Of a stretch of 64,000 nt of DNA, positions 10,168 to 62,858 are shown one piece after another. Source of the stretch: a bacterium (GTDB lineage: Bacteria; Patescibacteriota; Minisyncoccia; Phycocordibacterales; UBA6899). The stretch is taken from the NCBI GenBank assembly GCA_021851895.1, contig JAJZQJ010000004.1, positions 9,127-73,126 on the forward strand, written 5' to 3'. The notes below the pieces were generated by a model. That model was not told the DNA's origin. It made no database searches and worked only from the letters and a program-made list of their open reading frames with translations. The position numbers were made by a program, and so were the translations under genes. The number at the start of each line of letters is the position of its first letter. The stretch's first letter is position 1.

Positions 10168-10536
10168 ATGATTCAACCACGTTCAATAGTGAAGATTGCG
10201 GATAACACCGGAGGAAAGATCGGTCGTATCTTCAAGGTCTTGGGTGGCAGCAAGCGCCGCTACGCAGGACTCGGGGATATCGTCGTCCTTTCTATCCAGA
10301 CCGCAGAGCCTCGCAAGACAGTGAAGAAGGGTGACGTTTGTAAGGCAGTTGTCGTTCGCCAGGCGAACGCACAGCGCCGTGCGGACGGTTCATACATCCG
10401 TTTCGATGAGAACGCAGTCGTGCTTCTCGATGCAAAGGGAGAGCCACGAGGCTCACGCGTCTTCGGACCAATCCCACGAGAGCTCGTTGAGAAGGGCTTC
10501 CAGAAGATCGGTACTTTGGCCCCTGAAGTTATCTAA
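10168..10536 (+). CDS. rplN: 50S ribosomal protein L14
   Basis: MIQPRSIVKIADNTGGK...IRFDENAVVLL...FGPIPREL. Confidence 0.9.
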   Translation: MIQPRSIVKIADNTGGKIGRIFKVLGGSKRRYAGLGDIVVLSIQTAEPRKTVKKGDVCKAVVVRQANAQRRADGSYIRFDENAVVLLDAKGEPRGSRVFGPIPRELVEKGFQKIGTLAPEVI

Positions 10537-10705
10537 TTAGGTGCGCGTATTTTTGACACATATTGCATGCTTCACTTTGCGACTCGCTCAATGGGCAATG
10601 AGCCCATCTCGCTTGAGTTCGCAAAGCTCCAGCATAGCAATCTGTATTCAAAATTACTTTGCACGTACGCAACTCATAAAATTATAAGTAGCAATAAAAA
10701 CTAAT

Positions 10706-10924
10706 ATGGCAAACTTCAAAAAGGGAGACACTGTTGTCGTTCTCGCGGGAGATGACAAGGGCAAGAAGGGCAAGGTCCTTCACGTGTTCACGCGAGAGGG
10801 TAAGGCGCTCGTCGAGGGCATCAATATCAAGAAGGATCACATCAAGCCTCGTGAAGAGGGTAAGAAGGGTCAGGTTATTGATAAGCCACATCCTGTGAAC
10901 CTCTCTAACCTCAAAGCGGCGTAG
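10706..10924 (+). CDS. rplX: 50S ribosomal protein L24
   Basis: MANFKKGDTVVVLAGDDKGKKGKV KOW motif. Confidence 0.85.
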   Translation: MANFKKGDTVVVLAGDDKGKKGKVLHVFTREGKALVEGINIKKDHIKPREEGKKGQVIDKPHPVNLSNLKAA

Positions 10925-11093
10925 TGAGAAGGAAGAAGGAAGAAGTAAGAAGGAGCTGTAAAAGCAATTCTTGATTTCTCCTAAGGATCCTCTTGCATTT
11001 ATAAGGAATTAAATTCCATTGCAGAATGGTACAGTGAGTGTGCAGTGACAGTAGGTGGCTCTAGCTTCTTACTTCTCACTTCTTACTTCTCAC
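10925..11093. repeat. heptamer-built inverted-repeat element, copy 1 (arms of tandem GTRAGAA units flanking ~100-nt core)
   Basis: left arm gtgagaaggaagaaggaagaagtaagaagg, right arm cttcttacttctcacttcttacttctcac; sits inside the operon between rplX and rplE. Confidence 0.8.
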
Positions 11094-11115
11094 TAATCTC
11101 TGTAAAAACACATAT

Positions 11116-11810: not shown

Positions 11811-12347
11811 ATGAAACTACGGTCACGAAGCGGTTTTACACTCATTGAATTATTGGTGGTCATTGCGATCATTGCCTTGCTCTCGAGTGTTGTACTCGCG
11901 ACACTTTCCACGGCACGTGCGAAGGCACGAGATGCACGCAGAATACAGGATATCAGGCAGTTGCAGCGTGCGATCGAACTCTATGCCGATGATCATGGTG
12001 GCCTCTATCCAACATCGGCGAATTTCGCGACGGTTGCGGATGTGGGTACGACTACCGCATATGGATCGAAGCGCATCACGAGTTCTGTTTACACGACTTG
12101 GGAAACCGATCTTGGACCGTTGCTTGCTCCGTATTTCTCAAAGATGCCGAAGGATCCGATCAATGTCGCGCCATATAGTTATGACTATCTTCCGGATGGA
12201 TATTCGCAATGTCCATCGTCGGCTCCGATGGGGAGTACGACCAAGTATGCGATCATCTTCTCTACTGAAGTGAATACGTATGACCTTTCACCACTTGAAG
12301 CACCGACATATCTTGGCGCAATCGGACGATATTGTGTGACCCCATAA
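11811..12347 (+). CDS. type IV pilin-like protein (prepilin N-terminal domain); paralog of 34635..35165
   Basis: MKLRSRSGFTLIELLVVIAIIALL...; shares ...LYADDHGGLYPTSA... and C-terminal RYCVTP with 34635..35165; preceded by tgctatactatatatATG. Confidence 0.8.
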   Translation: MKLRSRSGFTLIELLVVIAIIALLSSVVLATLSTARAKARDARRIQDIRQLQRAIELYADDHGGLYPTSANFATVADVGTTTAYGSKRITSSVYTTWETDLGPLLAPYFSKMPKDPINVAPYSYDYLPDGYSQCPSSAPMGSTTKYAIIFSTEVNTYDLSPLEAPTYLGAIGRYCVTP

Positions 12348-14418: not shown

Positions 14419-14448
14419 TTGACTTTTCTTCACTTTTCCGGTAAATTG
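14419..14448 (+). promoter_or_regulatory. sigma70-like promoter TTGACT-18-TAAATT re-initiating the rpsN-secY part of the r-protein cluster, followed by a ~150-nt structured leader
   Basis: hexamers read from sequence; leader hairpin ctccttttgtg...cacaaaagaag. Confidence 0.4.
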
Positions 14449-14603
14449 AGCGAACGGAGATGTCATCCGCCACTCTCCTTTTGTGCCCACTTGGACACAA
14501 AAGAAGTGTTGCGCGATATGCTCTTCGTTTATAAACCCAGCCGCTTAGGAAAGCGTGCTTTTGCGTCATGCAGAAGTACATTCCTTCGCGAAAGCAAATA
14601 AGA

Positions 14604-15191: not shown

Positions 15192-15725
15192 ATGTCACGT
15201 CTCGCAAAAAAGCCGCTCGTGCTTCCTAAGGGAGTCGAGGCGAAGCTTGATGGTACAACGCTTACCGTCAAGGGTCCAAAGGGTGAACTTACACGTTCAT
15301 TCCCAGAATTCGTAAAGTTCGTTATTGCAGACAATGCAATCACCGTAAGCATCGATTCAGTTGAGCGTAAGGATCAGCCGATGCTCGGAACCTCAGCTGC
15401 GCTCGCGCGCAATATGGTTGTCGGAGTTACGGAGGGTTTCAAGAAGCAGCTCCTCATCGAGGGTGTCGGCTTCAAGGCAGATGCAAAGGGTGAAGAGCTC
15501 CACATGGCGCTCGGGTTCTCGCATCCTGTCGTCGTTGCAGTGCCTAAGGGACTCAAGGTCACCACAGGTAAGGGAACGATCGACGTCGAAGGTATCGATA
15601 AGGAACTTGTCGGTGCATTCGCAGCTGATGTGCGCGCGCTCAAGAAGCCTGAGCCATTCAAGGGTAAGGGCATCCGCTATGTCGATGAGGTTATTCGCCG
15701 TAAGCAGGGTAAGAAGTCTGCATAA
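15192..15725 (+). CDS. rplF: 50S ribosomal protein L6
   Basis: MSRLAKKPLVLPKGV...GVTEGF...PEPYKGKGIRY pattern. Confidence 0.9.
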   Translation: MSRLAKKPLVLPKGVEAKLDGTTLTVKGPKGELTRSFPEFVKFVIADNAITVSIDSVERKDQPMLGTSAALARNMVVGVTEGFKKQLLIEGVGFKADAKGEELHMALGFSHPVVVAVPKGLKVTTGKGTIDVEGIDKELVGAFAADVRALKKPEPFKGKGIRYVDEVIRRKQGKKSA

Positions 15726-15730
15726 TACTA

Positions 15731-15823
15731 AGTAAGAAGGAAACAGTAAGAAGTAAGAAGGAAAAACTAGAACGTATTTGCGCTTCAGGATCACCTTCTC
15801 ACTTCTCACTTCTCACTTCTCAC
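15731..15823. repeat. heptamer-built inverted-repeat element, copy 2
   Basis: left arm agtaagaaggaaacagtaagaagtaagaagg, right arm ccttctcacttctcacttctcacttctcac; between rplF and rplR. Confidence 0.8.
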
Positions 15824-15834
15824 TACTTAAACTT

Positions 15835-16188
15835 ATGATGAATAAAACACAGCAAAAGCAGTACAACCTCATGCGCCGAAGCAATCGCATTCGCGCAAAG
15901 ATCGTTGGAACTGCAGCAAAGCCTCGTCTCGCGGTCTTTCGTTCGACCGTACACATGCAGGCACAGCTCATCGATGATGTGAAGGGAATCACCCTCGCAG
16001 CCGCTCATGACCTCAAGGACATGAAGGGTACAAAGATGGAGCGCGCAGTCGCAGTGGGCAAGCAGCTCGCAGCAGCCGCAAAGGCAAAGGGTATTACAGC
16101 AGTCGTCTTTGATCGTGGAGGTTTCCTCTACGCAGGTCGCGTCAAGGCACTCGCAGATGCAGCTCGCGAAGGCGGTCTCGTCTTCTAA
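15835..16188 (+). CDS. rplR: 50S ribosomal protein L18
   Basis: ...RLAVFRS...[17 protein letters not shown]; start moved to ATG 15835 because the ORF's 5' end is the repeat arm. Confidence 0.85.
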
Positions 16189-18722: not shown

Positions 18723-18749
18723 TACTTCGCACGTCAGCTGCTTTACGGC

Positions 18750-18855
18750 ACTGGTCTTTTCGCCGGGGGTTGCCTCACGCTTCGCCCTCGCCGTACCATC
18801 GTACGTCGTCGGGCTCCAGCGAGGCCACCGCCGACAAAAATCCACAGTGCAATGT
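18750..18855 (+). repeat. ~110-nt long-hairpin dispersed repeat, copy A
   Basis: modules ctcacgcttcgcc / ccgtaccatcgtacg / ggctccagcgagg / gccgacaaaaatcc shared with copies B-E. Confidence 0.75.
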
Positions 18856-22798: not shown

Positions 22799-23290
22799 AT
22801 GAAAAGAGGCTTTACACTCATCGAATTATTGGTCGTCATCGCAATCATCGGGCTGCTTTCGAGTGTCGTTCTTGTAACGCTTTCGACGGCTCGTGCAAAA
22901 GGGAGGTTCGCACGTACGATCGCGGATATGCATCAGGTACAGATCGCGGCGGATGCATTCGCTGCCAGTACGGGCGACTACCCCGATGATGCAGTCAATG
23001 GGCAGCTCCCTCCGAATGCGACCAGTGATTTTTTGAGTTCGTGGCCATCCGCGCCCTGTCCTGGCTGGACATATGATTATGATTATTGGCGTCCGACCGA
23101 TTACAGCGTCGTCGCTCCTGAGCAAGAGAAGATGTCGCGTATCGTGTTCCTGCGATCAGGCGTTCCGAGATTCTACTATTGTATAAAACCCGGGATTTCG
23201 AATCTCTGTAAACATCCCGTCGATGAATCGGATCCCACATTCATCGATATCCGAGATAAGGAAATCAAGGAAATAACTTGTGCCGAATGA
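22799..23290 (+). CDS. type IV pilin-like protein
   Basis: MKRGFTLIELLVVIAIIGLLSSVVLVTL; -10 TATACT 13 nt upstream of ATG. Confidence 0.75.
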   Translation: MKRGFTLIELLVVIAIIGLLSSVVLVTLSTARAKGRFARTIADMHQVQIAADAFAASTGDYPDDAVNGQLPPNATSDFLSSWPSAPCPGWTYDYDYWRPTDYSVVAPEQEKMSRIVFLRSGVPRFYYCIKPGISNLCKHPVDESDPTFIDIRDKEIKEITCAE

Positions 23291-23326: not shown

Positions 23327-23815
23327 ATGAAAGTGCAGAATAAAGGTTTCACACTCATCGAACTCCTCGTCGTGATTGCAATAATCGCCTTGCTCTCGAG
23401 TGTTGTCCTTGCGACACTTGCGGTATCTCGGGCAAAAGGGAGAGATGCCAAGCGCAGGAGTGATCTTGAGCAGATGCGCATCGCTTTGGAATTATATTAT
23501 GATGCCACAGGTGGATATCCTTCATCGAGTGATGGAAATTGTGACGCGATTGACGATCGTAGTTTTCTGCCCGGGGGTTGTCTCGAGGTACTTGTAACGG
23601 GAGGATATCTTCCGAGACTTCCCGAAGATCCACTCGCAACATCGACCGATCCGCTCTACCGCTACGATGATTACTGTGCACTTCCTGCTCCCGCTGCGCG
23701 CAATAACCAGCGCTATCGTTTCATTGCAGATACTGAGTTGCCTGCTGGTGGACTCGCCAATAATCTCTGGGGAGAGAATCAGGTAGTCATCGCTTCGTGC
23801 GCTGACCCAAAGTAA
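23327..23815 (+). CDS. type IV pilin-like protein
   Basis: MKVQNKGFTLIELLVVIAIIALL; upstream tgctatactatatatATG identical to the motif at 11811. Confidence 0.8.
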   Translation: MKVQNKGFTLIELLVVIAIIALLSSVVLATLAVSRAKGRDAKRRSDLEQMRIALELYYDATGGYPSSSDGNCDAIDDRSFLPGGCLEVLVTGGYLPRLPEDPLATSTDPLYRYDDYCALPAPAARNNQRYRFIADTELPAGGLANNLWGENQVVIASCADPK

Positions 23816-23861: not shown

Positions 23862-24629
23862 ATGTCTTTGATCAAAACTCCGGGAGAAATAGAAATATTA
23901 CGTGAGGGCGGGAAGCGCCTCGCGAAGGTTTTGCGTATGACCCGCGATTACATCAAGCCGGGGATGACCACGCGCGAGATCGATGCGTATGCTGAAAAGC
24001 TCATTCTCGATTTCGGTGATACGACCCCATTCAAGAATTATCAGCCGCGTGGAGCACGCAAGCCATTTCCTGCTGCACTTTGTATTTCCGTAAACGATGA
24101 GATCGTGCACGGCATCCCTGGTGATCGTGTTATTAAGGATGGAGATGTTGTGAGTATCGATCTTGGTCTCACACATCGAGGACTCGTAACCGATCATGCG
24201 CTTTCGGTGATCGTTGGTGATGCTCCGCAGCGCGTAAAAGATCTCCTTCGTTATACCGAAGAAGCATTATGGAAGGGTATCGACGCAGCGAAGATCGGAG
24301 GCCATATTGGCGATATCTCCGCAGCGATCGAAGAGGTACAGGTAAAGCATAAGTATGGCAATGTGCGTGAACTCGGTGGTCACGGTGTCGGGCATGGTGT
24401 GCATGAGGATCCCTATGTACCAAATTACGGACGCAAAGGGACGGGCCCGCGCTTACAGCAGGGTATGGTACTCGCAATCGAGCCAATGTTCATACTTGAT
24501 GGTACTGAGGATATTCGTCAGATGCCGGACGGTTGGACGATCGTCACCCATTCGGGCGCGACAGCAGCACACTTTGAGCATACGATTGCATTCACGGATA
24601 AGGGTGTGGAGGTGCTTACAATGGAGTAA
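23862..24629 (+). CDS. map: type I methionine aminopeptidase
   Basis: metal ligand pattern D..D..H..E..E and MAP core, 255 aa. Confidence 0.9.
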   Translation: MSLIKTPGEIEILREGGKRLAKVLRMTRDYIKPGMTTREIDAYAEKLILDFGDTTPFKNYQPRGARKPFPAALCISVNDEIVHGIPGDRVIKDGDVVSIDLGLTHRGLVTDHALSVIVGDAPQRVKDLLRYTEEALWKGIDAAKIGGHIGDISAAIEEVQVKHKYGNVRELGGHGVGHGVHEDPYVPNYGRKGTGPRLQQGMVLAIEPMFILDGTEDIRQMPDGWTIVTHSGATAAHFEHTIAFTDKGVEVLTME

Positions 24630-24853
24630 GAACGCCACTTCGTGGGCCAGGCGTTCTTGCCTGTAGATGAGCCGCCACCGCGGCACACAACAACTCAATT
24701 AAAACCACCACTAAAGCATAGTGGTTTTAATTTTTCAGGTAAGAAATACCCTTCGTGGGCCAGGCGTTCTTGCCTGTAGATGAGCCGCCACCGCGGCACA
24801 CAACAACTCAATTAAAACCACCACCAAAGCATAGTGGTCTTAATTTTTCAGGT
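24628..24853 (+). repeat. two tandem direct repeats (~113 nt each), each carrying two hairpins
   Basis: unit aagaacgcc...ggccaggcgttcttgcctgtagatgagccgccaccgcggcacacaacaactcaattaaaaccaccac.aaagcatagtgg.tttaatttttcaggta repeated; followed by a third terminator 24855-24887. Confidence 0.85.
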
Positions 24854-24996
24854 AGAACAAAAGACCCCCTTGGGGTCTTTTGTTCTGTGCGAACCCTACG
24901 GAGCTTTGTCCAACGAATGCCACTGATATGATCTCTTGATTGACCTTTATGTAAAGTCATGCCTACACGGTATTTACTGTGATACAATATGCGCAT

Positions 24997-26622
24997 ATGC
25001 GATCGTTGAAAGAAGGTTTCACGCTTATTGAATTGTTGGTGGTCATTGCAATAATCGCCTTACTTTCAAGTGTTGTGCTCACTGTGCTCACCACGGCACG
25101 TTCGAAGGCGCGCGATAGCCAGCGTATTCGGAATGCACACGAGCTTTCTCTGGCGCTCGAGCAGTATGAGTCGACCGAAAATACTTACAGGGTCGCGGGT
25201 GCAGGATACGCAAATTCTGGTGGCGGTTATGTTGCAAAAGGCGCAGAGACTTTAGGATATTCAAACTCGATCATCACGGTACTTAGTGCGAAGGGTTACT
25301 ATACGGCGGACACTTTATCAGATCCAATATATGGAACGGATAATTATTATCTCGGGATGTGCACTTCAACGTATAGTGTCTTTTTGAAAGTTGAGCAACC
25401 AGAATTGCAGCAATCTTCTTCAACGATTGCTTCTGCGTGCGATGGTGTAAATGCCTCCGCAGCAGGATTCAATTTTATTGCTGGTGGTGGTGATTATGGG
25501 GCGGCCAGTGGCGTTGCGGCAGGTGGCGGTTTCATTACTTCACTTACGGGTGATGTAGATCCGACGTTTGTCTCTGGGCAATATGGGGGCGCCGATGGCT
25601 CCATTTATGATCTTAGGATCCAGAGTGATGGCAAGGTTGTCGTTGTCGGCAACTTCTCCAGCATGTTCAATGGATCGTCTCGGCGAGGCGTTGCAAGAGT
25701 CAATGGAGATGGCTCTCTCGATGCGAATTTTGCAGCAACTTGTGGGCTTGACGTCGGAGGGTCGACCCTGGAGACACAGTCAGACGGCAAGATCATCGTG
25801 GGTGGTGGTTTTTCGACATACTGTGGTAGCTCATCAAAAAATCTTGTACGCTTAAATCCTGATGGTTCGATCGATACGAGTTTCATTGGAAATGGTGCCC
25901 CCGATGGCGCTGTGCGTACGATGAAGTTCCAGCAAGATGGGAAATTGATCATTGGTGGTGATTTCTTGAAGGTGGGTGGAGTATCGAGTCCACATATAGC
26001 AAGATTGAATGTCGACGGTTCCCTTGATTCTTCCTTCTCGGTTGGTTCTGGTTTCGATCAATATCCGCTTTCATTGGCTGTACAGTCAGACGGGAAGATT
26101 GTTGCGGCGGGTATTTTCGTCTCATTCAACGGAACAGCTCGAAATCACGTTGCTCGCCTGAATGGAGATGGTTCTCTTGATGTAACCTTCACTTCTCCGA
26201 TCATCGGAGGAAGTTTTGCACAGGCCTTGAGTATACAGAGTGATGGAAAGATCATCGTCGGTGGGGGATTCGGTGCGTGGAATTTTTCATATTATAACTT
26301 GCTGCGGATGCTACCCGATGGAACCATTGATTCGAGCTTTAATACAGGTACTGCTCCTGATAGCACGGTGTATAGCACTCTCGTGCTTCCAAACGGGGAG
26401 ATCCTCATTTCGGGTGCGTTCAATCATTATAATGGGGTGACGAGAAACAAAGTGGCGTTGCTCAAGTCCGATGGCACACTCGACACAGGTTTCGCATCGG
26501 TAGCGGATACGATTAATTACATTCTTGCTCTCGGTCTACAAAGTGATGGTCGCGTGATTCTTGGAGGAACCTTCACGAGTTATGGGGGAATACCTCAGTC
26601 AGATCTCGCACGTGTCCAATGA
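24997..26622 (+). CDS. prepilin-type N-terminal domain fused to delta-60-repeat beta-propeller domain
   Basis: MRSLKEGFTLIELLVVIAIIALL N-terminus; at least 7 repeats of ..DGS[LI]D.[ST]F..G.. about every 55-60 aa (GDGSLDANF, PDGSIDTSF, VDGSLDSSF, GDGSLDVTF, PDGTIDSSF, SDGTLDTGF). Confidence 0.7.
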   Translation: MRSLKEGFTLIELLVVIAIIALLSSVVLTVLTTARSKARDSQRIRNAHELSLALEQYESTENTYRVAGAGYANSGGGYVAKGAETLGYSNSIITVLSAKGYYTADTLSDPIYGTDNYYLGMCTSTYSVFLKVEQPELQQSSSTIASACDGVNASAAGFNFIAGGGDYGAASGVAAGGGFITSLTGDVDPTFVSGQYGGADGSIYDLRIQSDGKVVVVGNFSSMFNGSSRRGVARVNGDGSLDANFAATCGLDVGGSTLETQSDGKIIVGGGFSTYCGSSSKNLVRLNPDGSIDTSFIGNGAPDGAVRTMKFQQDGKLIIGGDFLKVGGVSSPHIARLNVDGSLDSSFSVGSGFDQYPLSLAVQSDGKIVAAGIFVSFNGTARNHVARLNGDGSLDVTFTSPIIGGSFAQALSIQSDGKIIVGGGFGAWNFSYYNLLRMLPDGTIDSSFNTGTAPDSTVYSTLVLPNGEILISGAFNHYNGVTRNKVALLKSDGTLDTGFASVADTINYILALGLQSDGRVILGGTFTSYGGIPQSDLARVQ

Positions 26623-28421: not shown

Positions 28422-31400
<2,979 letters not shown>

Positions 31401-31513
31401 AGTCAGTTGACGACTTATGTTCTGAAACACGCAACATGTTCGACGCAGAAATGCGATAGTTGCTCAATGATTACACTTTTTGTTCAAGGATTCAGTTTAC
31501 TGATCCATTGTTT

Positions 31514-31638
31514 GCATTGATAGAGGTGGCTCGACGTTGTGGACCCACCCGGTCTCATTCCGAACCCGGAAGTGAAACATGATAGTGCCGATGATACTCC
31601 TCAGAAGGGGGAAAAGTAGGTAGCTGCCTCGATCAATG
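31514..31638 (+). rRNA. rrf: 5S ribosomal RNA
   Basis: ccggaagtgaaacatgatagtgccgatg... typical 5S; terminal helix cattgatagaggtggc / gctgcctcgatcaatg. Confidence 0.8.
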
Positions 31639-32290
31639 TAAAGAATGTAGAAAAACACCAGCGATGGTGTTTTTCTTTTTTTGGAGAAAATTCTAAATGC
31701 TTGGTCTCTTCCTTGCGGAAGAGTCATTGATTATTCAGAAGGGGTCAAAGTAAGAACGCCCCTTCGGGGACCAGGGCGTTCTTGCCCGACAAGGTGTCGC
31801 CACTGCGACGCTGTTCAACTCAAGCCGTCGCTCCGCTCCGTCTCTCACGGGTAGGTACGCTGCCTCGATCAATGCAAAGAATAAAGAAGCACCCGAAAGG
31901 GTGTTTTTCTTTATATATTCAATTCTCGATGCGCGGTCTCTCCCCTTTGGGGAGAGTCATTGATTTGTCCGGAAGTGAAACATGATAAGAACGCCGCCGA
32001 GGACGGCGGACCAGGGCGTTCTTGCCCGACAAGGAGCGGCCACCGCCGCCCACTTCAACTCACGCCTCAGCTGCGCTGAGTCGCTCACGGGTAAGCCGAT
32101 GATACATAAATACATCTGTTTACCACGGGTAGGAACGCTGCCTCGATCAATGCAAAGAATAGAAATAAAACACCAGTAATGGTGTTTTTTGATAATCCCT
32201 CAATGCTCGATTTCTTCCTTGCGGAAGAGTCAGAAATTTTTTTCGAAGAGGTATGAAAAGAGACGTTTAGGACGAACATCATAAACGTCC
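31611..32290 (+). repeat. about 2.7 degenerate tandem repeats of ~240 nt, each = 5S 3'-end-like segment + terminator hairpin + structured hairpins
   Basis: gtaggta.gctgcctcgatcaatg.aaagaat recurs at 31614, 31851, 32130; unit 2 also repeats 5S-internal ggaagtgaaacatgata. Confidence 0.75.
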
Positions 32291-32973: not shown

Positions 32974-33180
32974 TCTTCATTTCGGACGTTTACGCTGTTT
33001 GGCGTAAACGTCCTTTTCTTTAGCATACTGCATTGACTTTTCCGTGAAAAACAGTAATATGTAAGTCAACGCTGAAGACAGCAGGTGTCCCGATAAAGGG
33101 GCTTAATCTCCTGCCGAAGTAACCAACTCTACCCCTTTTTGGGGCGGTTGATCTTCTCGTTAAGGTCGATCTTTTTATTA

Positions 33181-33274
33181 GTGAGAAGTAAGAAGTGAGA
33201 AGTGAGAAGAAATTCAATATACCTCAGGGTTCTTGAATTTCCTTCTTTCTTCTTGCTTCTCACTTCTTACTTAT
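33181..33274. repeat. heptamer-built inverted-repeat element, copy 3
   Basis: left arm gtgagaagtaagaagtgagaagtgagaag, right arm cttctttcttcttgcttctcacttcttac; immediately upstream of rplJ. Confidence 0.8.
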
Positions 33275-33281
33275 TACATAT

Positions 33282-33770
33282 ATGGCAATCACAAAGCAGA
33301 AGAAGGCAGAGATCACAGAGAAACTTTCTCTCGGTCTCTCATCAGCAGCAGGCGCAGCATTCGTCTCCGCTCGCGGTATCACCGCAAACGAAATGAATAC
33401 GCTTCGCCGTGAGCTTCGCGAGAAGGGAGTCAAGTATGCCGTTGCGAAGAAGTCGCTCATGAAGCGCGCATTCGCAGAGCGCGGTATCACTGGAACCCTT
33501 CCTGAGCTTCCAGGTGAGGTTGCAATCGCATGGTCAGCAGACCCGATCGCAGCATCAAAGGGGGTCTACGAGTTCGCGAAGGCAAACAAGGAGCGCATGC
33601 AGCTCGTCGGAGGAATCTACGAGGGCGCGTTCATGTCGAAGGAGGAGATCATGCAGCTCGCACTCGTTCCATCATACAAGGAACTCCAGGGCAAGTTCGC
33701 TGGTGTACTCAGTGCGGTCGTCACGAAGTTCGTTCGTGTAGTCGACGCAAAGGCAGCAAAGGGCGAATAA
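33282..33770 (+). CDS. rplJ: 50S ribosomal protein L10
   Basis: MAITKQKKAEITEKL...FVSARGITANEMNTLRRELREKGVKYAVAKKSL. Confidence 0.85.
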   Translation: MAITKQKKAEITEKLSLGLSSAAGAAFVSARGITANEMNTLRRELREKGVKYAVAKKSLMKRAFAERGITGTLPELPGEVAIAWSADPIAASKGVYEFAKANKERMQLVGGIYEGAFMSKEEIMQLALVPSYKELQGKFAGVLSAVVTKFVRVVDAKAAKGE

Positions 33771-34262: not shown

Positions 34263-34294
34263 CATAACTTAAGCTCGACTGCATAGTGGCGGCC

Positions 34295-34548
34295 GCGGTC
34301 TTTTTCGCGGGGAAGGGTTCAGGCTTCGCTATCGCGGTACCATTGTACCGCTTCAAGCTCCAGCCAACCCTTCGCCGCGAAAAATCCGCGCGGTTTCATG
34401 ATGTAGATTGTGTTAGGATATAACGCTCCAGCCAAGCCGCCGCAGACAAAAATCCTCAGTGTTTCATAGTGTGACATATGTATAATAGTGTCATTCGTCG
34501 TCAAGCTCCAGCCAACCCTTCGCCACGAAAATCCCACGCGGTTTCATG
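34295..34548 (+). repeat. long-hairpin repeat copy B plus two partial tandem copies of its 3' module
   Basis: aagctccagccaacccttcgccgcgaaaaatccgcgcggtttcatg (34352-34400) repeated at 34501-34548 and degenerate at 34425-34468. Confidence 0.75.
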
Positions 34549-34634
34549 GCGTTGCATTTGTCAAAATTCCTCGCTATACATGGAGATTATCAGGTTTCAG
34601 TGGCTGTAAGCAAAGTCTCTGGTATACTATCATC

Positions 34635-35165
34635 ATGAAAGCGTCGAACGAAAAAGGTTTTACACTGATCGAACTTCTGGTTGTCATTGCGATCATCGGA
34701 TTGCTTTCGAGCGTCATCGTCGCTACGTTGTCTACGGCGCGAGCGAAGTCAAGAGATGCGCGTCGCATAAGTGACATACGAGAGATTCAGAAAGCCCTCG
34801 AGCTTTATGCGGACGATCATGGTGGACTCTATCCGACTTCAGCGAGCTTTGCGGATTATACGGAGGACGCAGGAGCGCTTGGTGCGAAGAAATATGTCAC
34901 AAGTAGGATGACTGAGTGGGATACAGTCTTTGCGCCACTAATTGCGGCATATATGAAGACAGTACCGAAAGACCCACTCAATGACCCTTGGCCCTATGTC
35001 TATTATTATCTTCCTGAAGGTCATGTCGCGTGTACATCCTCTGGTGTTATTGATGGCATGACGCGATATACATTGGTATTCTCGACAGAAGTAAGCAATT
35101 TCGATCTTCAGCAGATCTCCGCAGGGCAGGGAGGATCACAGGCGCGCTATTGTATGACGCCATAA
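34635..35165 (+). CDS. type IV pilin-like protein; paralog of 11811..12347
   Basis: MKASNEKGFTLIELLVVIAIIGLL...; ends RYCMTP; TATACT 6 nt upstream of ATG. Confidence 0.8.
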   Translation: MKASNEKGFTLIELLVVIAIIGLLSSVIVATLSTARAKSRDARRISDIREIQKALELYADDHGGLYPTSASFADYTEDAGALGAKKYVTSRMTEWDTVFAPLIAAYMKTVPKDPLNDPWPYVYYYLPEGHVACTSSGVIDGMTRYTLVFSTEVSNFDLQQISAGQGGSQARYCMTP

Positions 35166-42478: not shown

Positions 42479-42895
42479 ATGAAAGAGATTTTTATAAGTG
42501 TTGTTGTTGCAGTCAGCCTCATGCTGATCGGGATGTTCTTTGCGGGAAGATTGAGTATCGGTGGAGCAGCGCAGGGTGATGCGGATAGTGGCAATCAGGC
42601 AAGTGTTCAGAATGTGAGTATGGTTGATGGCAAGCAAATCATCGAGGTTACCGCGCGTGGTGGCTACTCTCCACGTTTCTCGGTCGCAAAGGCAGGTGTA
42701 CCAACGGTCATTCGCATGAAAACAGAAGGGACGTTCGATTGCTCGTCGATATTCACATTACCATCGCTCGGTATACGTGAGGCGCTTCCATCGTCTGGGG
42801 TAAAGGATATCGACATACCCGCACAAGTATCAGGCACGACGCTCACGGGCACCTGTGCGATGGGTATGTATAGCCTCCAGGTACAATTCCAGTAG
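42479..42895 (+). CDS. membrane-anchored cupredoxin-like domain protein
   Basis: TM anchor then IEVTARGGYSPRFSVAKAGVPTVIRMKTEG...TGTCAMGMYS resembling the Cupredoxin_1 fold with C/M ligands. Confidence 0.45.
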   Translation: MKEIFISVVVAVSLMLIGMFFAGRLSIGGAAQGDADSGNQASVQNVSMVDGKQIIEVTARGGYSPRFSVAKAGVPTVIRMKTEGTFDCSSIFTLPSLGIREALPSSGVKDIDIPAQVSGTTLTGTCAMGMYSLQVQFQ

Positions 42896-43073
42896 AGTCA
42901 AAGTCATGAGTCCTTGTTTCAAGTCATGAGTCATGAGTGTGAGTCATGAGATAAATATAGGAATTCACAAAGAATACACAAGCAAAAATGCTCGTGTATT
43001 TTTCGTATTTGTTTGTTCTCATGACTCATGACTTTAACTCATGACATGAAACAAGGGCTCATGACTTGGCATT
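42896..43073. repeat. inverted-repeat element built from tandem GTCATGA/AGTCATG heptamers, with an internal terminator-like hairpin
   Basis: arms gagtcaaagtcatgagtccttgtttcaagtcatgagtcatgagtgtgagtcatgag and ctcatgactcatgactttaactcatgacatgaaacaagggctcatgac; core atacacaagcaaaaatgctcgtgtattttt. Confidence 0.8.
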
Positions 43074-43090
43074 ACGCCTGTGTTATTATT

Positions 43091-46000
43091 ATGGGAGCTA
43101 TGTTACCTAATGAGGAAATGCATGAAGTCGTACCAGCAGCGCCGATAGTCGAATCGGAACTCGCACACGTTCGTGAGCAGGTTTCTTTGCGCGAGGCAGT
43201 CGCCCAGGCTAAAGGCGTCGAGATGCCGCGCAGTCAGATCGTATCTAAGGTGCTTGCAGAGTATGCAGATCAGAAGCCCGAAGATGTACTTCCAGAACAT
43301 GCGATCATCGGCAATCCGAAATTCGAGGAGATCGTGCGCTCTGTCGATGCGCTTCCGCATCGCGAGAAGATTCGTGAGCTCTATGCGATCATGCAGGAGC
43401 GTGGCATATTGAATGCGATAAAAATCGCAGAAGGGCTCGGCAATCCTCACGTTGAGGAAGATTTTCATCATGTGCTCGTCCATTATGTGCATACCGGATC
43501 ACTTATACCTGGTCTCGATAAGGAAAAGGAGCTGCGTAAGGAATTAGATCGCACGGTATTTCAGGTGGTTGTTCCATTGCAGAAAGAGCGCGGTGAGGTG
43601 GATCCCCAGCAGGTACTGCTCTCTATGCAGCGTTTTCTCTCGGGCATCTTTGGTCAAGGTGGAGGTGACGTGCAGTATGCATTCGAGATAGCGCTCCCGA
43701 ACTTCTCCTCAGACGTTTCATTTTTTGTCACTGTTCCTGATGAGCAGAAAGACCTTTTCTTGAAGCAATTCTTGGGTAATTTCCCTACTGCAAGGGCGAT
43801 GCCGATCGATGATGACTACAATATCTTTAATGAGTTTGGTGTCTCAGCGGTCGCCGTCGGTAGGCATGAAAAGCGTTTCGCCTATGCACTTTCGGTTCCT
43901 GAGGGGGCGATGGAGTCCCTCTCACCTATCCTTGCTGCTTTTTCAAACATCGCGCATCAGGGTGAAGCTGCCGCGATTCAGTACATCGTTCGTAAAGACG
44001 ATCGGGATCTCTTGAAGAAGACCCGTTCCGCTATAGGAAAGATAAACGGTGGCATGAAGATCGGTGAGGCGACAGATATTCCGCTCACTCTTGGTGGCGA
44101 TACGATGAAATTCATCGGCAATCTTTTCTCTTCTGAAAAAGAGAAGTCGAAAGAGATCTCTCCTGAGGAGCAAGAACGACGTAATAGGGAGATCAAGGTC
44201 ATTGAAAATAAGACCGTTGCACCTTTTGTGCGTGTCGATCTGCGCATCATTGTGTCCTCTCCTGACCGCGATCGAACGATGCAAATTCTCAATGCACTCA
44301 TCGCGGCTTTTGGACAATTTGCGAACCGCGAATCGTCTGGTGGGCTACGCTTCGATGTGATCACGCGGGGAAGTGCGTTCGATGAGCAGCTCCACGCATT
44401 CACCTATCGCCTGGGAACGAATGATGCTCTTGTGTTGAATCACAATGAATTTTCTGGACTCTTTCATCCACCGCTTGCGATCACTGCAGCAGAAGCACCG
44501 AACCTCGCATCGATAAAATCTGCTACGGCTCCGCCCCCAGCACAACTTTCAGAGGAGGGGACTTTGCTCGGTGAAAGCGTCTATCGCGGTGTGCGAAAGC
44601 CTGTTCGCATGCTTCCACAGGATCGTCTCCGTCATCTCTATGTTATCGGTCAAACCGGTACAGGTAAGACCACGATCATGAAGAACATGATCATCGAGGA
44701 CATTAAGGCAGGTAATGGTGCGTGCTTCATTGATCCGCATGGTTCTGATGTGCAGGATATTCTCGCAAACATTCCCAGAGACCGTATTGATGATGTCATC
44801 TATTTTGATCCCTCATATACTGCGCGTCCGTTTGGGCTCAACATGCTCGAGTATGATGAATCTCGCCCCGAGCAGAAGATCTTTGTCGTGAATGAGCTGC
44901 TCGCGATCTTCAAGAAACTCTATTCGTCCTCACCAGAGTCGATGGGTCCCGCATTCGAGCAATATTTCCGTAACGCAACGATGCTCGTTATGGAGGATCC
45001 CGAAACAGGGAACACGATGCTCGAGATCACGCGCGTGCTTGCCGATGCGAAGTTCAGAGATTTGAAGCTCAGTAGGTGTAAGAACCCGATCGTCACACAG
45101 TTTTGGAGAGACATCGCAACAAAATCGACCGGTGAAGCATCGCTTGCGAACATGGTCCCGTACATCACGAATAAATTCGATGTATTCATTTCGAATGACG
45201 TGATGCGTCCGATCATCGCCCAGCAACGTTCCTCGTTCAACTTCCGGGATATCATGGATAACAAGAAGATCCTTCTTGTGAATCTCGCAAAAGGAAAGCT
45301 TGGTGAGATGAATGCGAATCTCCTCGGTATGATCATCGTTGGTAAGCTCTTCCTTGCTGCAATGAGTCGCGTGGATTCTTATGGTATGAAGTTGCCAGAC
45401 TTCTACCTCTATATCGATGAATTCCAAAACATCTCTACGCCATCGATCGCAGGAATCCTCTCTGAAGCAAGAAAGTATGGTCTTTCACTCAATATCGCAC
45501 ACCAGTTCATTGCGCAGATCGACCCTGAAATACGTGACGCGGTATTCGGTAATGTTGGTTCAATGGCAGTATTCCGTATCAGCGCAGACGATGCGCAGTA
45601 TCTCGAGTCGCACTTCTCTCCGACTTTCACCGCGACCGATCTTATGAAGATCGAGAGTCATAATTGCTATCTGAAGCCACTTATCAACGGAGTACCTGTT
45701 GCTCCATTCAATATTGCTGTATATCCGCCAAATAAGGGCGTTCCTCAAATCGTTGAGCAGTTACAGCAGCTCTCATACATGAAATATGGAAGAGAGCGTG
45801 AAGTGGTTGATAGTGCAATCGTAAAGAAATATCAGCAAACTGCAGCAGCGGCTTCGAATCAGCCAAAACCATCTGCGCCGGCAGCACCAGCACCAAAGCC
45901 TGCGCCAGCGCCGATGGTCCAGCAGCCATTTGTTCCGTCGCCGCAGGCTCTCGCATACCCTCAGCAGCAACCATTTGCGCAGCCACAAATGCAGCCTTAC

Positions 46001-46252
46001 CCACCACAGGGTTATGCATATCCTGCTCCGCAGATGCCGCCACAATATGCGGTCCCTCCGCAACCTTTCGTTCCCCATGGAAATACGGCACCATATATGT
46101 ATCCGCCCGTATATCCGCCGCCAATGTATCCTCCGCACCCAATGCAGGCGGGGCCCTATGGATATCCTCCGCAGTATATTCCGCCGCAGCAATATCCGCA
46201 GCCACCAGTCATGCCGCCGGAAATACATGAACATACGGATGATCAAAGATAA
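43091..46252 (+). CDS. HerA/VirB4/VirD4-superfamily (FtsK-HerA clade) P-loop ATPase with ~520-aa N-terminal domain and Pro/Gln/Tyr-rich C-terminal tail (start 43091/43100/43118 uncertain)
   Basis: Walker A VIGQTGTGKTT followed by FIDPHGSD; Walker B LYIDEFQNI; ARKYGLSLNIAHQ; tail PSAPAAPAPKPAPAP...YPPQ repeats. Confidence 0.55.
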   Translation: MGAMLPNEEMHEVVPAAPIVESELAHVREQVSLREAVAQAKGVEMPRSQIVSKVLAEYADQKPEDVLPEHAIIGNPKFEEIVRSVDALPHREKIRELYAIMQERGILNAIKIAEGLGNPHVEEDFHHVLVHYVHTGSLIPGLDKEKELRKELDRTVFQVVVPLQKERGEVDPQQVLLSMQRFLSGIFGQGGGDVQYAFEIALPNFSSDVSFFVTVPDEQKDLFLKQFLGNFPTARAMPIDDDYNIFNEFGVSAVAVGRHEKRFAYALSVPEGAMESLSPILAAFSNIAHQGEAAAIQYIVRKDDRDLLKKTRSAIGKINGGMKIGEATDIPLTLGGDTMKFIGNLFSSEKEKSKEISPEEQERRNREIKVIENKTVAPFVRVDLRIIVSSPDRDRTMQILNALIAAFGQFANRESSGGLRFDVITRGSAFDEQLHAFTYRLGTNDALVLNHNEFSGLFHPPLAITAAEAPNLASIKSATAPPPAQLSEEGTLLGESVYRGVRKPVRMLPQDRLRHLYVIGQTGTGKTTIMKNMIIEDIKAGNGACFIDPHGSDVQDILANIPRDRIDDVIYFDPSYTARPFGLNMLEYDESRPEQKIFVVNELLAIFKKLYSSSPESMGPAFEQYFRNATMLVMEDPETGNTMLEITRVLADAKFRDLKLSRCKNPIVTQFWRDIATKSTGEASLANMVPYITNKFDVFISNDVMRPIIAQQRSSFNFRDIMDNKKILLVNLAKGKLGEMNANLLGMIIVGKLFLAAMSRVDSYGMKLPDFYLYIDEFQNISTPSIAGILSEARKYGLSLNIAHQFIAQIDPEIRDAVFGNVGSMAVFRISADDAQYLESHFSPTFTATDLMKIESHNCYLKPLINGVPVAPFNIAVYPPNKGVPQIVEQLQQLSYMKYGREREVVDSAIVKKYQQTAAAASNQPKPSAPAAPAPKPAPAPMVQQPFVPSPQALAYPQQQPFAQPQMQPYPPQGYAYPAPQMPPQYAVPPQPFVPHGNTAPYMYPPVYPPPMYPPHPMQAGPYGYPPQYIPPQQYPQPPVMPPEIHEHTDDQR

Positions 46253-53269: not shown

Positions 53270-53878
53270 ATGGATAAGAATCATCCTCGTTATGAACGTA
53301 CATTTGTGATTGTAAAACCTGATGGTGTGCAGCGTGGTCTCTCGGGAGAGGTCATCGAGCGCATCGAGCGCTCAGGCCTCAAGATGATCGGCATGAAGTT
53401 CATGGTTGCGACACGCGAGCAGGCAGCAAAGCATTATGGTAAGGACGATGCATGGTGTGCAAAGGTCGGTCAGCGCACCGTCGATCGCATCATCAGTGAG
53501 GGCGGAAAGCCAGAGAAGGAGGCAGTCGCATATGGTCGCGATGTCCTGAATGGACTCCTCGATTTCCTCACGTGCTCTCCGATCGTCGTGATGGCATGGG
53601 AGGGAAACCAGGCAGTTGGTATCGTCAAGAAGATCGTCGGTGGTACAGAGCCGCTTACAAGTGATGTGGGTACGATTCGTGGCGACCTCACGCTCGATTC
53701 CTATGACATCGCAAACATCGATGGACGTGCAGTCCGCAACTTGGTCCACTGCTCGGATATGGTAGAGGAGGCGAAGCGAGAGCTCGCGATCTGGTTCAAG
53801 GAGGAGGAGCTTATTAAGTGGAAGTCGATACAGGAGAAGATGCTGTATGATGTGAATCTCGACGGCATCCTAGAATAG
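53270..53878 (+). CDS. ndk: nucleoside diphosphate kinase with C-terminal extension
   Basis: ERTFVIVKPDGVQRGL..., catalytic region ...NLVHCSD; ORF opens at 53192. Confidence 0.75.
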   Translation: MDKNHPRYERTFVIVKPDGVQRGLSGEVIERIERSGLKMIGMKFMVATREQAAKHYGKDDAWCAKVGQRTVDRIISEGGKPEKEAVAYGRDVLNGLLDFLTCSPIVVMAWEGNQAVGIVKKIVGGTEPLTSDVGTIRGDLTLDSYDIANIDGRAVRNLVHCSDMVEEAKRELAIWFKEEELIKWKSIQEKMLYDVNLDGILE

Positions 53879-53883
53879 ACCGC

Positions 53884-53999
53884 ATATTTGGGCGATCTTG
53901 CCCTCACGCTTCGGCATGCGACTCGCTCACCGTAGAACACCTACGGCTCGCTAGAGTTCGCACGCCTCCAGCGAGGGCAATCTCATCCCAAATCTTCGG
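53884..53999 (+). repeat. long-hairpin dispersed repeat, copy C
   Basis: ccctcacgcttcgg...tcaccgtagaacacctacggctcgct...cgcctccagcgaggg...atcccaaatcttc; ends atttggg.../...cccaaat pair. Confidence 0.75.
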
Positions 54000-54045
54000 T
54001 CTTGAAATTCCAAATGCAATACGGTCTTTCATTTTGAGAATGCGA

Positions 54046-54125
54046 CAGATGCAAATGCTGTTGCATTTTTTTTGATTCAAAATGCGGTAGTAAAAACAGC
54101 TCACGAGGAGCTGTTTTTAGTGGTA
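54046..54125 (+). terminator. two tandem terminators after ndk
   Basis: tgcaaatgctgttgcatttttttt and aaaaacagctcacgaggagctgttttt. Confidence 0.65.
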
Positions 54126-56765: not shown

Positions 56766-56782
56766 GAACATTACCAACCGTA

Positions 56783-56900
56783 AATTTTCCTGATGACGAA
56801 CTTCTTCGTTATGGGGCCCCACCGCCTCGTCACCGTAGAGCTCCTACGGCTCCGTCGGTCGGTCACCCCATGCCTCGAATTTCATCCATCAGGAAAAATT
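56783..56900 (+). repeat. long-hairpin dispersed repeat, copy D (terminal pair ttttcctgatg / catcaggaaaa)
   Basis: tcaccgtagagctcctacggctccgtcgg... between rpmI and rplT. Confidence 0.75.
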
Positions 56901-56924
56901 CACACATAACTAATCAAAGAAAAT

Positions 56925-61843: not shown

Positions 61844-61915
61844 ATAGCTTGATCGTGCTTTAAGATTATTTTAGCTAATACTGAGTGTTGTAAAATACGC
61901 CAGCATTAGCGCGCA

Positions 61916-62022
61916 CAGATTTTGGATGCAGGTACCCTCCGCTGGAGCCAAGCGAACTCAAGCGAGCCGTACGTTGGTACGGTGAGTGAGTCGCTTGGCG
62001 AAGCGAGGGTATATGCGCCAAA
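61916..62022 (-). repeat. long-hairpin dispersed repeat, copy E (inverted orientation)
   Basis: reverse complement reads ...tcaccgtaccaacgtacggctcgcttgagttcgcttggctccagcggaggg...atccaaaatct, matching copies A-D. Confidence 0.75.
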
Positions 62023-62039
62023 ATATGTGTGCGACTACT

Positions 62040-62428
62040 GGGGATGACTTGGCTTCGACAAGTTGACTCGTAGTGAATCGTGCGTGCCGGAGATGCCGAT
62101 TGTCTCCGCAAAAACATCGGTAAACCATAAGTGCAAACAAAAGCACCGGAGTTGCTTCACCATATTTTGGTGCCAAGGACTTCTCATTCGCATACGCATA
62201 ATTGCGGCGACGTGGCATAGGGAGGACTCCTTATAGGCTCTATCCCACGATCACTTCATAAGGATAGGTGACTTCCGTACGATAAGTCATTCGAACATTA
62301 AGTACTCGTGTTGAGTGAATTTTGTTTCTTTCATATCACTCTTCATTAAACACTTAAAGAAACTACGCCCGTAGAAACATTCATTACTTCGATTTGGACG
62401 GGGGTTCAATTCCCCCCATCTCCACAAA
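62040..62428 (+). ncRNA. ssrA: tmRNA (SsrA); predicted tag ANKSTGVASPYFGAKDFSFAYA; CCA not encoded
   Basis: 5' ggggatgacttggcttcgaca..., 3' ...ggacgggggttcaattccccccatctcca; resume codon GCA then ORF ending ...FAYA taa; terminator 62432-62468; adjacent to smpB. Confidence 0.8.
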
Positions 62429-62858
62429 ATGACCACCCAGAAGCGAAAGCTTCTGGGTGGTTTCATTTTGCAGAGATGTGGGGAATTGAAAGACGGAGCC
62501 GGGTACCGTCACCCGGCGCAAGATTTATCCGAGCTTCGCTCGTGATAAATCCAGCCGCGTGCACGGTCGGCGAGTCGGGGTCGCGAGTACTTAGGCTTTT
62601 GACGTCTCGCAGAGCGTCAAAAGACTTAGTAACTTGTGACCGATGCCCCCATCTCTTATTTAGTGCGGCTTTGCGCTCAATGAAACTCAAACCGGAACGG
62701 TTTTACGTTTCCCTTATGTATTGTAATCTATTTAGTGACGAAGGGGCGATTCCCATTCCTGTTCTGCATGGCTTTACGCTCAATGAGTCAAAAACCCGAA
62801 GGGTTTTTCTGCTCCTTAATGCATTGCAATTAAAAAGCAGCCCCTAGGCTGCTCTCTC

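Follow-up and report, generated by a model that had tools for sequence, protein, structure and literature searches.

A 64-kb stretch of DNA from a Paceibacteria (Parcubacteria, CPR) genome, that of a tiny groundwater bacterium, was found to carry six full copies of a non-coding repeat, each 110–130 nt long and each able to fold into one long hairpin. We refer to this whole stretch as the window. Base pairing within the repeat is kept on one strand of the element whichever way the flanking genes run. Comparison with related genomes revealed polymorphism of the sites, replacement of alleles, swapping of arms between copies, and truncation and decay. With only slightly more confidence than doubt, we interpret the repeat as a lineage-restricted, non-coding palindromic family of a small Paceibacteria clade that behaves as REPIN/MITE-like mobile DNA and acts in single-stranded form.

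Genomes of the CPR/Patescibacteria are small and streamlined. The repeat occurs about once every 10 kb in the window, in some cases within ribosomal-protein operons. Apart from these operons the window contains secY, a 23S–5S pair, ndk, rpmI-rplT, smpB and the tmRNA gene, and its closest named L14 proteins come from Candidatus Paceibacterota and Candidatus Lloydbacteria MAGs. Loci from relatives, designated by L-numbers, were retrieved via L14, SmpB and L7/L12 homologues. Throughout, F denotes the repeat strand as written in the first-pass annotation of the window and R its reverse complement, which is the better-pairing strand and reads 5'-GATTTT..GCTGGAG..apical hairpin..CGAAGC..AAAAT-3'.

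A covariance model (R2) was built from family members and used to scan the whole window with filters off. The six full copies scored 50–108 bits (E-values of 6e-12 to 5e-29), and the scan returned no other convincing member of the family in the window (Table 1). All five copies described in the first-pass annotation were recovered where it had placed them and belong to one family; its minimum of five stands, but a sixth full copy, in the gap between rplN and rplX, had been missed. Two partial tandem copies had also been described after rplL. These are present, with corrected limits, and are 3' halves that each start exactly at the conserved GCTCCAGC motif. The half copies form no hairpin when taken alone (-9.2 kcal/mol for the upstream one). 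Copies within one genome have diverged from each other and are often 45–60% identical. The copy between smpB and the tmRNA gene is the only one in the window with R on the + strand, and the copy between rpmI and rplT lacks the GCTGGAG/CGAAGC loop motif.

Table 1. Full and partial copies of the hairpin repeat in the 64-kb window
Copy	Position	Strand	Location	Core	R2 score (bits)	E-value	Remarks
Full, long subtype	10541..10664	R on -	gap between rplN (10168-10536) and rplX (10707-)	10550-10656	100.7	5.5e-27	
Full, short subtype	18748..18850	R on -	after the secY terminator, between convergent genes	18757-18842	54.7	3e-13	
Full, short subtype	34294..34390	R on -	after the rplL terminator	34301-34386	50.3	6.4e-12	fold z -7.2
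Partial (3' half)	34421..34481	-	after rplL				one arm from GCTCCAGC plus ~25 nt of flank; direct-repeat families D6, D7
Partial (3' half)	34501..34561	-	after rplL				same arm plus flank; D6, D7; 84% identity with the corresponding part of the full copy
Full, long subtype	53877..54002	R on -	directly after the ndk stop codon (53878)	53886-53995	101.5		
Full, most divergent	56780..56903	R on -	inside the rpmI-rplT operon	56787-56897	59.6	1e-14	
Full, long subtype	61908..62036	R on +	gap between smpB (ends 61843) and the tmRNA gene (62040-62427)	61917-62024	107.6	4.8e-29	

The claim that every copy lies just 3' of a gene terminator did not hold. Only the copies after secY and rplL follow a terminator hairpin (direct-repeat family D3); the other four do not. 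Three of these, after ndk, rpmI and rplN, start within a few bases of the stop codon, and the smpB copy starts about 65–75 nt past the smpB stop; none has a terminator in the intervening DNA, and terminator scans around three of the copies, including the smpB one, were empty there. The ndk copy precedes a T-tailed, terminator-like hairpin near 54050-54075, which was read from the sequence and not called by the scan. Proximity to the 3' ends of highly expressed genes, also proposed initially, partly reflects the gene content of the window; relatives also carry copies upstream of S14 and pilM.

Pairing is kept on one strand of the element

The proposal that each copy is a single long imperfect hairpin was borne out by folding, with RNA z-scores of -3.5 to -11.9 and none of 200 shuffled sequences folding as well. 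The apical motif CCGTAS-N3-7-STACGG occurs three times, versus 0.01 occurrences expected. An outer stem, the sequence of which varies from copy to copy, extends pairing 5–9 bp beyond the modelled core and past the limits originally assigned to the copies. There are two subtypes: the long one contains an extra GCGAACTC...GAGTCGC stem, while the short one is found after secY and rplL. Of the sequence modules thought to be shared by all copies, CTCACGCTTCG is exact in only two, the others having variants. Conservation on R is highest in the GA-TTTT/AAAA foot, in an internal loop in which GGA faces GA, located between CGCU/AGCG and GC/GC stems, and in an apical GTAC or GTAT stem closed by a G·U pair.

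Several known structures were considered and rejected. The repeat is not an intrinsic or bidirectional terminator, as on either strand its order is the reverse of a terminator's (T run, stem, stem, A run), and scans around three copies called no terminator-like site within the elements. The internal loop is not a kink-turn, which needs a 3-nt bulge and tandem G·A pairs; the loop has only GGA opposite GA. A retron msr/msd was dismissed because there are many dispersed copies and no reverse transcriptase in the DNA scanned.

Covariation was analysed with 18 copies (17 distinct) from the window and the loci of relatives. Standard pairs accounted for 96.0% of the pair cells, compared to 68.6% after shuffling and 35–44% when the partners were slid by 1–3 columns. 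Double-sided changes were found at 36 of 40 pairs, and none of 500 shuffles reached any of five measures; although the alignment had been fitted to the model and includes orthologues among its rows, the margin is very large. Compensatory changes, on which the proposed pairing could have failed, thus support it strongly. Template switching from arm to arm can make and perfect DNA hairpins without selection (PMC8794818). As this process can yield matched double changes, covariation alone is not proof of an RNA function.

The two strands differ in how well the pairing is kept. The 630 pair cells of R comprise 552 Watson–Crick pairs, 53 G·U, 3 A·C and 22 other combinations, such that 96% are standard pairs on R compared to 88% on F. 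Under RNA parameters each of the six window copies folded better as R than as F (R having 17 G·U pairs and F 1), and under DNA parameters this was true of five of the six. The asymmetry is not just inherited, as a similar bias was apparent between orthologues (smpB, window/L144; ndk, window/L143; secY, window/L122/L125; upstream of S14, L127/L122), where about 12 one-sided changes on R switched between Watson–Crick and G·U pairs versus one to A·C. The bias of G·U over A·C is present at sites with R on either chromosome strand. Because it is independent of the chromosome strand of R, it follows the element rather than replication or transcription, and strand-biased mutation was rejected as the source of the G·U excess for the same reason. 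From these data we conclude that the selected fold is that of one specific single strand.

Turnover of copies among related genomes

The family occupies 11 distinct sites in the window and the relatives' loci, at least five of which are filled in some relatives and empty in others. The rplN/rplX gap, 170 nt long and filled in the window, is empty and only 21–26 nt long in L122, L125 and L128. Between rpmI and rplT the window has a copy while L143 has an empty 32-nt gap, and the smpB/ssrA site is filled in the window and L144 and empty in L143. Other sites are filled elsewhere: the one upstream of S14 is empty in the window and filled in L122, L125 and L127; L128 carries a copy between rplX and rplE, where the window has none of this family, and another upstream of pilM; a copy absent from the window follows rplT in L143; and one follows tsf in L134. 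After rplL, where the window has a full copy and two halves, the copy of L146 is secY-like and truncated at its 3' end, and that of L145 is reduced to a remnant of ~16 nt.

Copies are also exchanged in whole or in part. L125 and L127 differ at about 5 positions in roughly 800 nt of flanking DNA (~99% identity), yet are only ~55% identical across ~190 nt at the S14 element. In L125 the copy at this site has outer arms that are 70% like the secY type and 43% like their positional counterpart. The inner part of the ndk orthologue in L143 (3489-3597) is kept, whereas its outer arms differ at 27 of 80 paired columns, with every difference compensated.

No target-site duplication or conserved target could be defined in the filled/empty comparisons at rplN/rplX, smpB/ssrA and rpmI/rplT, and the ends of the element differ between copies. 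The rplN and smpB insertions include about 45 extra AT-rich bases on the 5' side of R (10657-10705 and 61856-61907) that are absent from the empty sites of relatives. At smpB the AT-rich insert displaces the DNA formerly upstream of the tmRNA gene, and transcription of ssrA may therefore run through the hairpin in the window.

Copies that stay in place are well conserved. The secY copy is 82–93% identical to its orthologues in L122, L125 and L127, compared to 36–47% for the downstream intergenic DNA. Similarly, the smpB copy is 90% identical to that of L144, while the adjacent leader is 55% and the 5' part of the tmRNA 92% identical. Overall, retained orthologous copies are 82–93% identical and the surrounding non-coding DNA 36–61%. 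This conservation points to selection for a host function or to continuing homogenisation, and not to purely selfish decay. It is mainly because resident copies exceed their flanks in conservation that we do not place a purely selfish reading higher.

Among the 11 independent sites F is the sense strand at 8–9 and R at two (smpB/ssrA and upstream of S14); the excess of F-sense copies is suggestive, not significant.

The family appears to be narrowly distributed. With filters off, it was absent from the 20-kb syntenic loci of relatives with 82–83% L14 identity. The stringent pattern CTCACGCTTCG-N25-55-CTCCAGCGAGG had no matches in viral contigs, and in a metagenome scan it returned eight loci, of which only L134 is a true member. 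One copy used as a BLAST query had no match among plasmids and phages. A genome-collection scan with GAGTTCGCNNNNCTCCAGC, in which 15 specified bases are too few, listed single matches in unrelated high-GC genomes; these were treated as chance uninspected. An Rfam check suggested by the first-pass annotation revealed no matching family: at gathering thresholds the whole window contained only 23S, 5S and tmRNA, and two copies searched at E-values up to 10 had no match. We found no published account of interspersed palindromic repeats in CPR/Patescibacteria.

What kind of element the repeat may be

The initial suggestion of a REP/MITE-like family is supported by the filled and empty sites, replaced alleles, truncated and decayed copies and narrow phylogenetic range. 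The element would be active as a single strand, most likely of DNA. An enzyme acting in trans, with its gene elsewhere, would recognise the hairpin via the purine-rich internal loop and the GA-TTTT/AAAA foot, and recombination between copies, together with templating from arm to arm, would keep the arms matched. With most copies located just past a stop codon or within an operon, the hairpin should also be transcribed, and a secondary influence on the processing or stability of the mRNA is probable.

Several observations run against mobility or its proposed substrate. The DNA scanned contains no gene for a transposase, integrase, HUH enzyme or reverse transcriptase, either in the window ORFs or in the gene tables of ~125 kb of family-positive loci from relatives. 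The three filled/empty comparisons lack a definable target-site duplication, and identities of 45–60% within a genome are unlike those of a recent burst. [quoted passage not shown] A possible though unlikely extension is that CPR bacteria have a single-strand-specific system, as yet unrecognised, with the hairpin as its substrate. This could be either a new mobile-DNA mechanism without REP/RAYT or IS200-type features, or an element recruited by the host with its R strand acting as DNA or antisense RNA; selection would keep the resident copies and the arms would be exchanged as modules.

The closest analogues of the repeat are the REPINs, doublets of inverted REP units that jointly form a long hairpin as single-stranded DNA or RNA and are mobilised by RAYT/TnpA-REP in Pseudomonas, E. 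coli and others. REPINs form long hairpins in which compensatory changes are common, and a single-stranded intermediate has been proposed (PMC3116915). TnpA-REP acts on only one strand of single-stranded REP, and a conserved GTAG tetranucleotide lies directly 5' of the REP palindrome (PMC8266576). The CPR repeat likewise consists of intergenic non-coding units of about 100 nt that form one long hairpin with common compensatory changes and leave partial-copy remnants, and it persists at conserved positions amid turnover of sites. The strand-specific, single-stranded recognition proposed or shown for REPINs has a parallel here as judged from pairing counts only, namely the G·U versus A·C counts and the orthologue changes given above. 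Unlike in REPINs, GTAG does not precede the palindrome: R starts with (A/G)GATTTT and F with GTCTTTT or ATATTT, and GTAG is present only inside the apical stem of two copies. The conserved blocks are the GCTGGAG/CGAAGC internal loop and the T-run/A-run foot rather than two terminal REPs of 16–25 nt, and two self-contained REP palindromes cannot be made out in the arms, beyond a weak CTCC-GCT-GGAG mini-palindrome in some copies. The host is also different, being a CPR bacterium with a genome of ~1 Mb or less. A RAYT/TnpA-REP gene (HUH Y1, PF01797) usually has the repeats on its flanks; none was present among the window ORFs or in gene tables from L122, L125, L128, L143, L144, L145 and L146, which cover part of each genome. 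Membership among the REPINs is not established because GTAG is absent, the arms are not recognisable REPs and the DNA scanned contains no RAYT gene.

The repeat was also compared with other small palindromic elements. As in MITEs, there are multiple dispersed copies with insertion polymorphism and no coding capacity, while the terminal inverted repeats with direct target-site duplication of a classical MITE were not seen. ERIC/IRU elements are imperfect palindromes of enterobacteria that, like the Correia elements, fall in the range of 100–160 bp. To our knowledge, an asymmetry of wobble pairs between strands has not been described for the ERIC or Correia families. Correia elements (CREE/NEMIS) are imperfect palindromes of Neisseria (PMC2649163). 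The CPR repeat resembles both ERIC/IRU and Correia elements in size, dyad symmetry over its whole length, a transcribed intergenic or 3' UTR location and insertion polymorphism between strains, as well as in the potential for RNase III cutting or protection to alter expression of neighbouring genes. It has no sequence similarity to them, its stems vary far more between copies, and none of the terminal inverted repeats, TA duplication or IHF site of Correia elements was seen.

Such precedents bear on a different explanation, in which the repeat is a cis-acting RNA structure that benefits the host. At highly expressed genes the hairpin would be part of the mRNA, in a 3' UTR or between cistrons, where it would offer a processing site to RNase III, stabilise the 3' end or insulate transcription, and it would spread by duplication. 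The predominance of F as the sense strand fits this explanation, as do copies located a few bases past a stop codon or within an operon (ndk, rplN/rplX, rpmI/rplT, rplX/rplE in L128, tsf in L134 and rplT in L143). The hairpins are long enough to be double-stranded RNase substrates, retained copies are more conserved than adjoining non-coding DNA, and Correia elements of Neisseria bind RNase III and alter expression (PMC2649163). However, the strand with preserved pairing is antisense at those sites, two sites have the opposite orientation, very close relatives lack the element at rplN/rplX, rpmI/rplT and smpB/ssrA, and the secY and rplL copies lie beyond terminators. We therefore regard a primary role of this kind as improbable, but not strongly so.

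The conserved strand could instead give rise to independently transcribed small RNAs or antisense RNAs. Pairing is kept on R regardless of the orientation of the neighbouring gene, the purine-rich internal loop and strong covariation resemble those of a structured RNA, and the extra AT-rich DNA at the smpB and rplN insertions lies on the 5' side of R. Nevertheless, scans of three sites identified no consensus promoter pointing into R, the single match being on the wrong strand and pointing away. In addition, the copies share no conserved flank upstream of R, the rpmI copy being almost without one, no terminator follows R, Rfam contains no match, and presence/absence in near-identical strains together with decayed copies would be unusual for RNA genes. 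We consider R-strand RNAs quite unlikely. The first-pass annotation had offered a family of small structured RNAs, for example derived from 3' UTRs, as an alternative to mobile DNA; it is not well supported, as the preserved strand is antisense at most sites and has no consensus promoter pointing into it at the three sites scanned, and the element occurs in both orientations.

A reading that we judge very unlikely is that the copies are folded single-strand recombination sites, like integron attC sites, at which a site-specific recombinase exchanges DNA segments. The attC boxes are R'' (RYYYAAC) and R' (GTTRRRY). As in attC, the structure of one strand is conserved rather than the sequence, stems are variable, certain unpaired bases are conserved and the size range is similar; the half copies that start exactly at the conserved loop motif, the allele replacement at one site and the arm swapping at two would also be accounted for. 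In contrast to attC, the ends (GATTTT..AAAAT) do not match the R''/R' consensus, no integrase domain was found in the window or the relatives' loci, and the copies are in mixed orientation. There is no cassette array, the neighbours being essential, syntenic genes for ribosomal and other core proteins. Last and already disfavoured, with very little probability in our estimate, is a reading of the copies as passive palindromes lacking function or mobility, their arms matched by replication template switching and the copies merely inherited or deleted: the switching process weakens double-sided changes as functional evidence (PMC8794818), but the reading leaves unexplained the paralogous copies with shared loop motifs at 11 different sites, the G·U-over-A·C asymmetry tied to the element strand and the conservation above that of flanking DNA.

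Returning to REPIN/MITE-like mobile DNA, the CPR repeat in our interpretation adds a new family to a well-known class of small mobile elements, its peculiarity being that the fold is kept on one strand only. Reduced CPR genomes thus also carry active or recently active repeat families. These repeats remodel the DNA between genes, come between essential genes that are co-transcribed and vary among strains of otherwise ~99% identity. In practical terms, such hairpins can break assemblies and can act as strain markers. The conservation of resident copies, the pairing of one strand and the modular swapping of arms together make the family a tractable system in which to ask if REPIN-like elements are parasitic or have been recruited by the genome.

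Other repeats and structures in the window

A second, unrelated family of long hairpins was found at 10915-11112, 15720-15840 and 33170-33285. It consists of inverted runs of GAGAAGT/GTAAGAA heptamers with folding energies of -33 to -67 kcal/mol. One heptamer hairpin fills the rplX/rplE gap, which is 191 nt long in the window versus 32–79 nt in L122 and L125, and another is located just upstream of rplJ. A 178-nt near-perfect hairpin (42895-43072, -93 kcal/mol) with CATGAGTC-type repeats ends within the annotated start of a gene for a 1074-aa TraG/TrwB-like ATPase (43028-46252).

The rRNA genes of the window are a 23S and a 5S gene (28429-31632). The 64 kb contain no 16S rRNA or tRNA gene, and the only ARAGORN match is the tmRNA. 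The 3' end of the 5S gene and its terminator (GCTGCCTCGATCAATG..) are repeated at 31623, 31859 and 32137. A unit of ~113 nt is present four times, as a tandem pair at 24626-24851 and after the 5S rRNA at 31745-31860 and 31985-32100. It consists of GTAAGAACGCC..GGCGTTCTTGCC and an GCCGCCACCGCGGC hairpin, followed in the tandem copies by a terminator-like hairpin. Rfam contained no meaningful match.

A weak match of the R2 model at 62405-62492 was rejected as a family member, being an inverted duplication at the 3' end of the tmRNA gene. An inverted repeat of the 3' end of this gene (62405-62432) lies at 62463-62490, and the two make a 106-nt hairpin (-62.5 kcal/mol), the loop of which contains a GC-rich stem-loop. 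A terminator or a scar left by integration of an element at ssrA could account for it, and a weak, uninspected model match in L143 (10844-10935) may represent the same feature.

Genes with type IV pilin-like N-terminal methylation motifs are found among the ribosomal-protein genes (11811-12347, 23327-23815, 24979-26622, 34488-35165 and near 22800). These paralogues share a similar 139-nt 5' segment (direct-repeat family D1). Lastly, a segment upstream of S14 (14440-14530; CGAACGGAGA.GTCATCCGCCACTCTCCTTTTGTGCCC...AAAAGAAGTGTTGCGCGATATGCTC) is nearly invariant in four genomes (the window, L122, L125 and L127) amid variable surroundings, and may be a ribosomal-protein leader or a small RNA.
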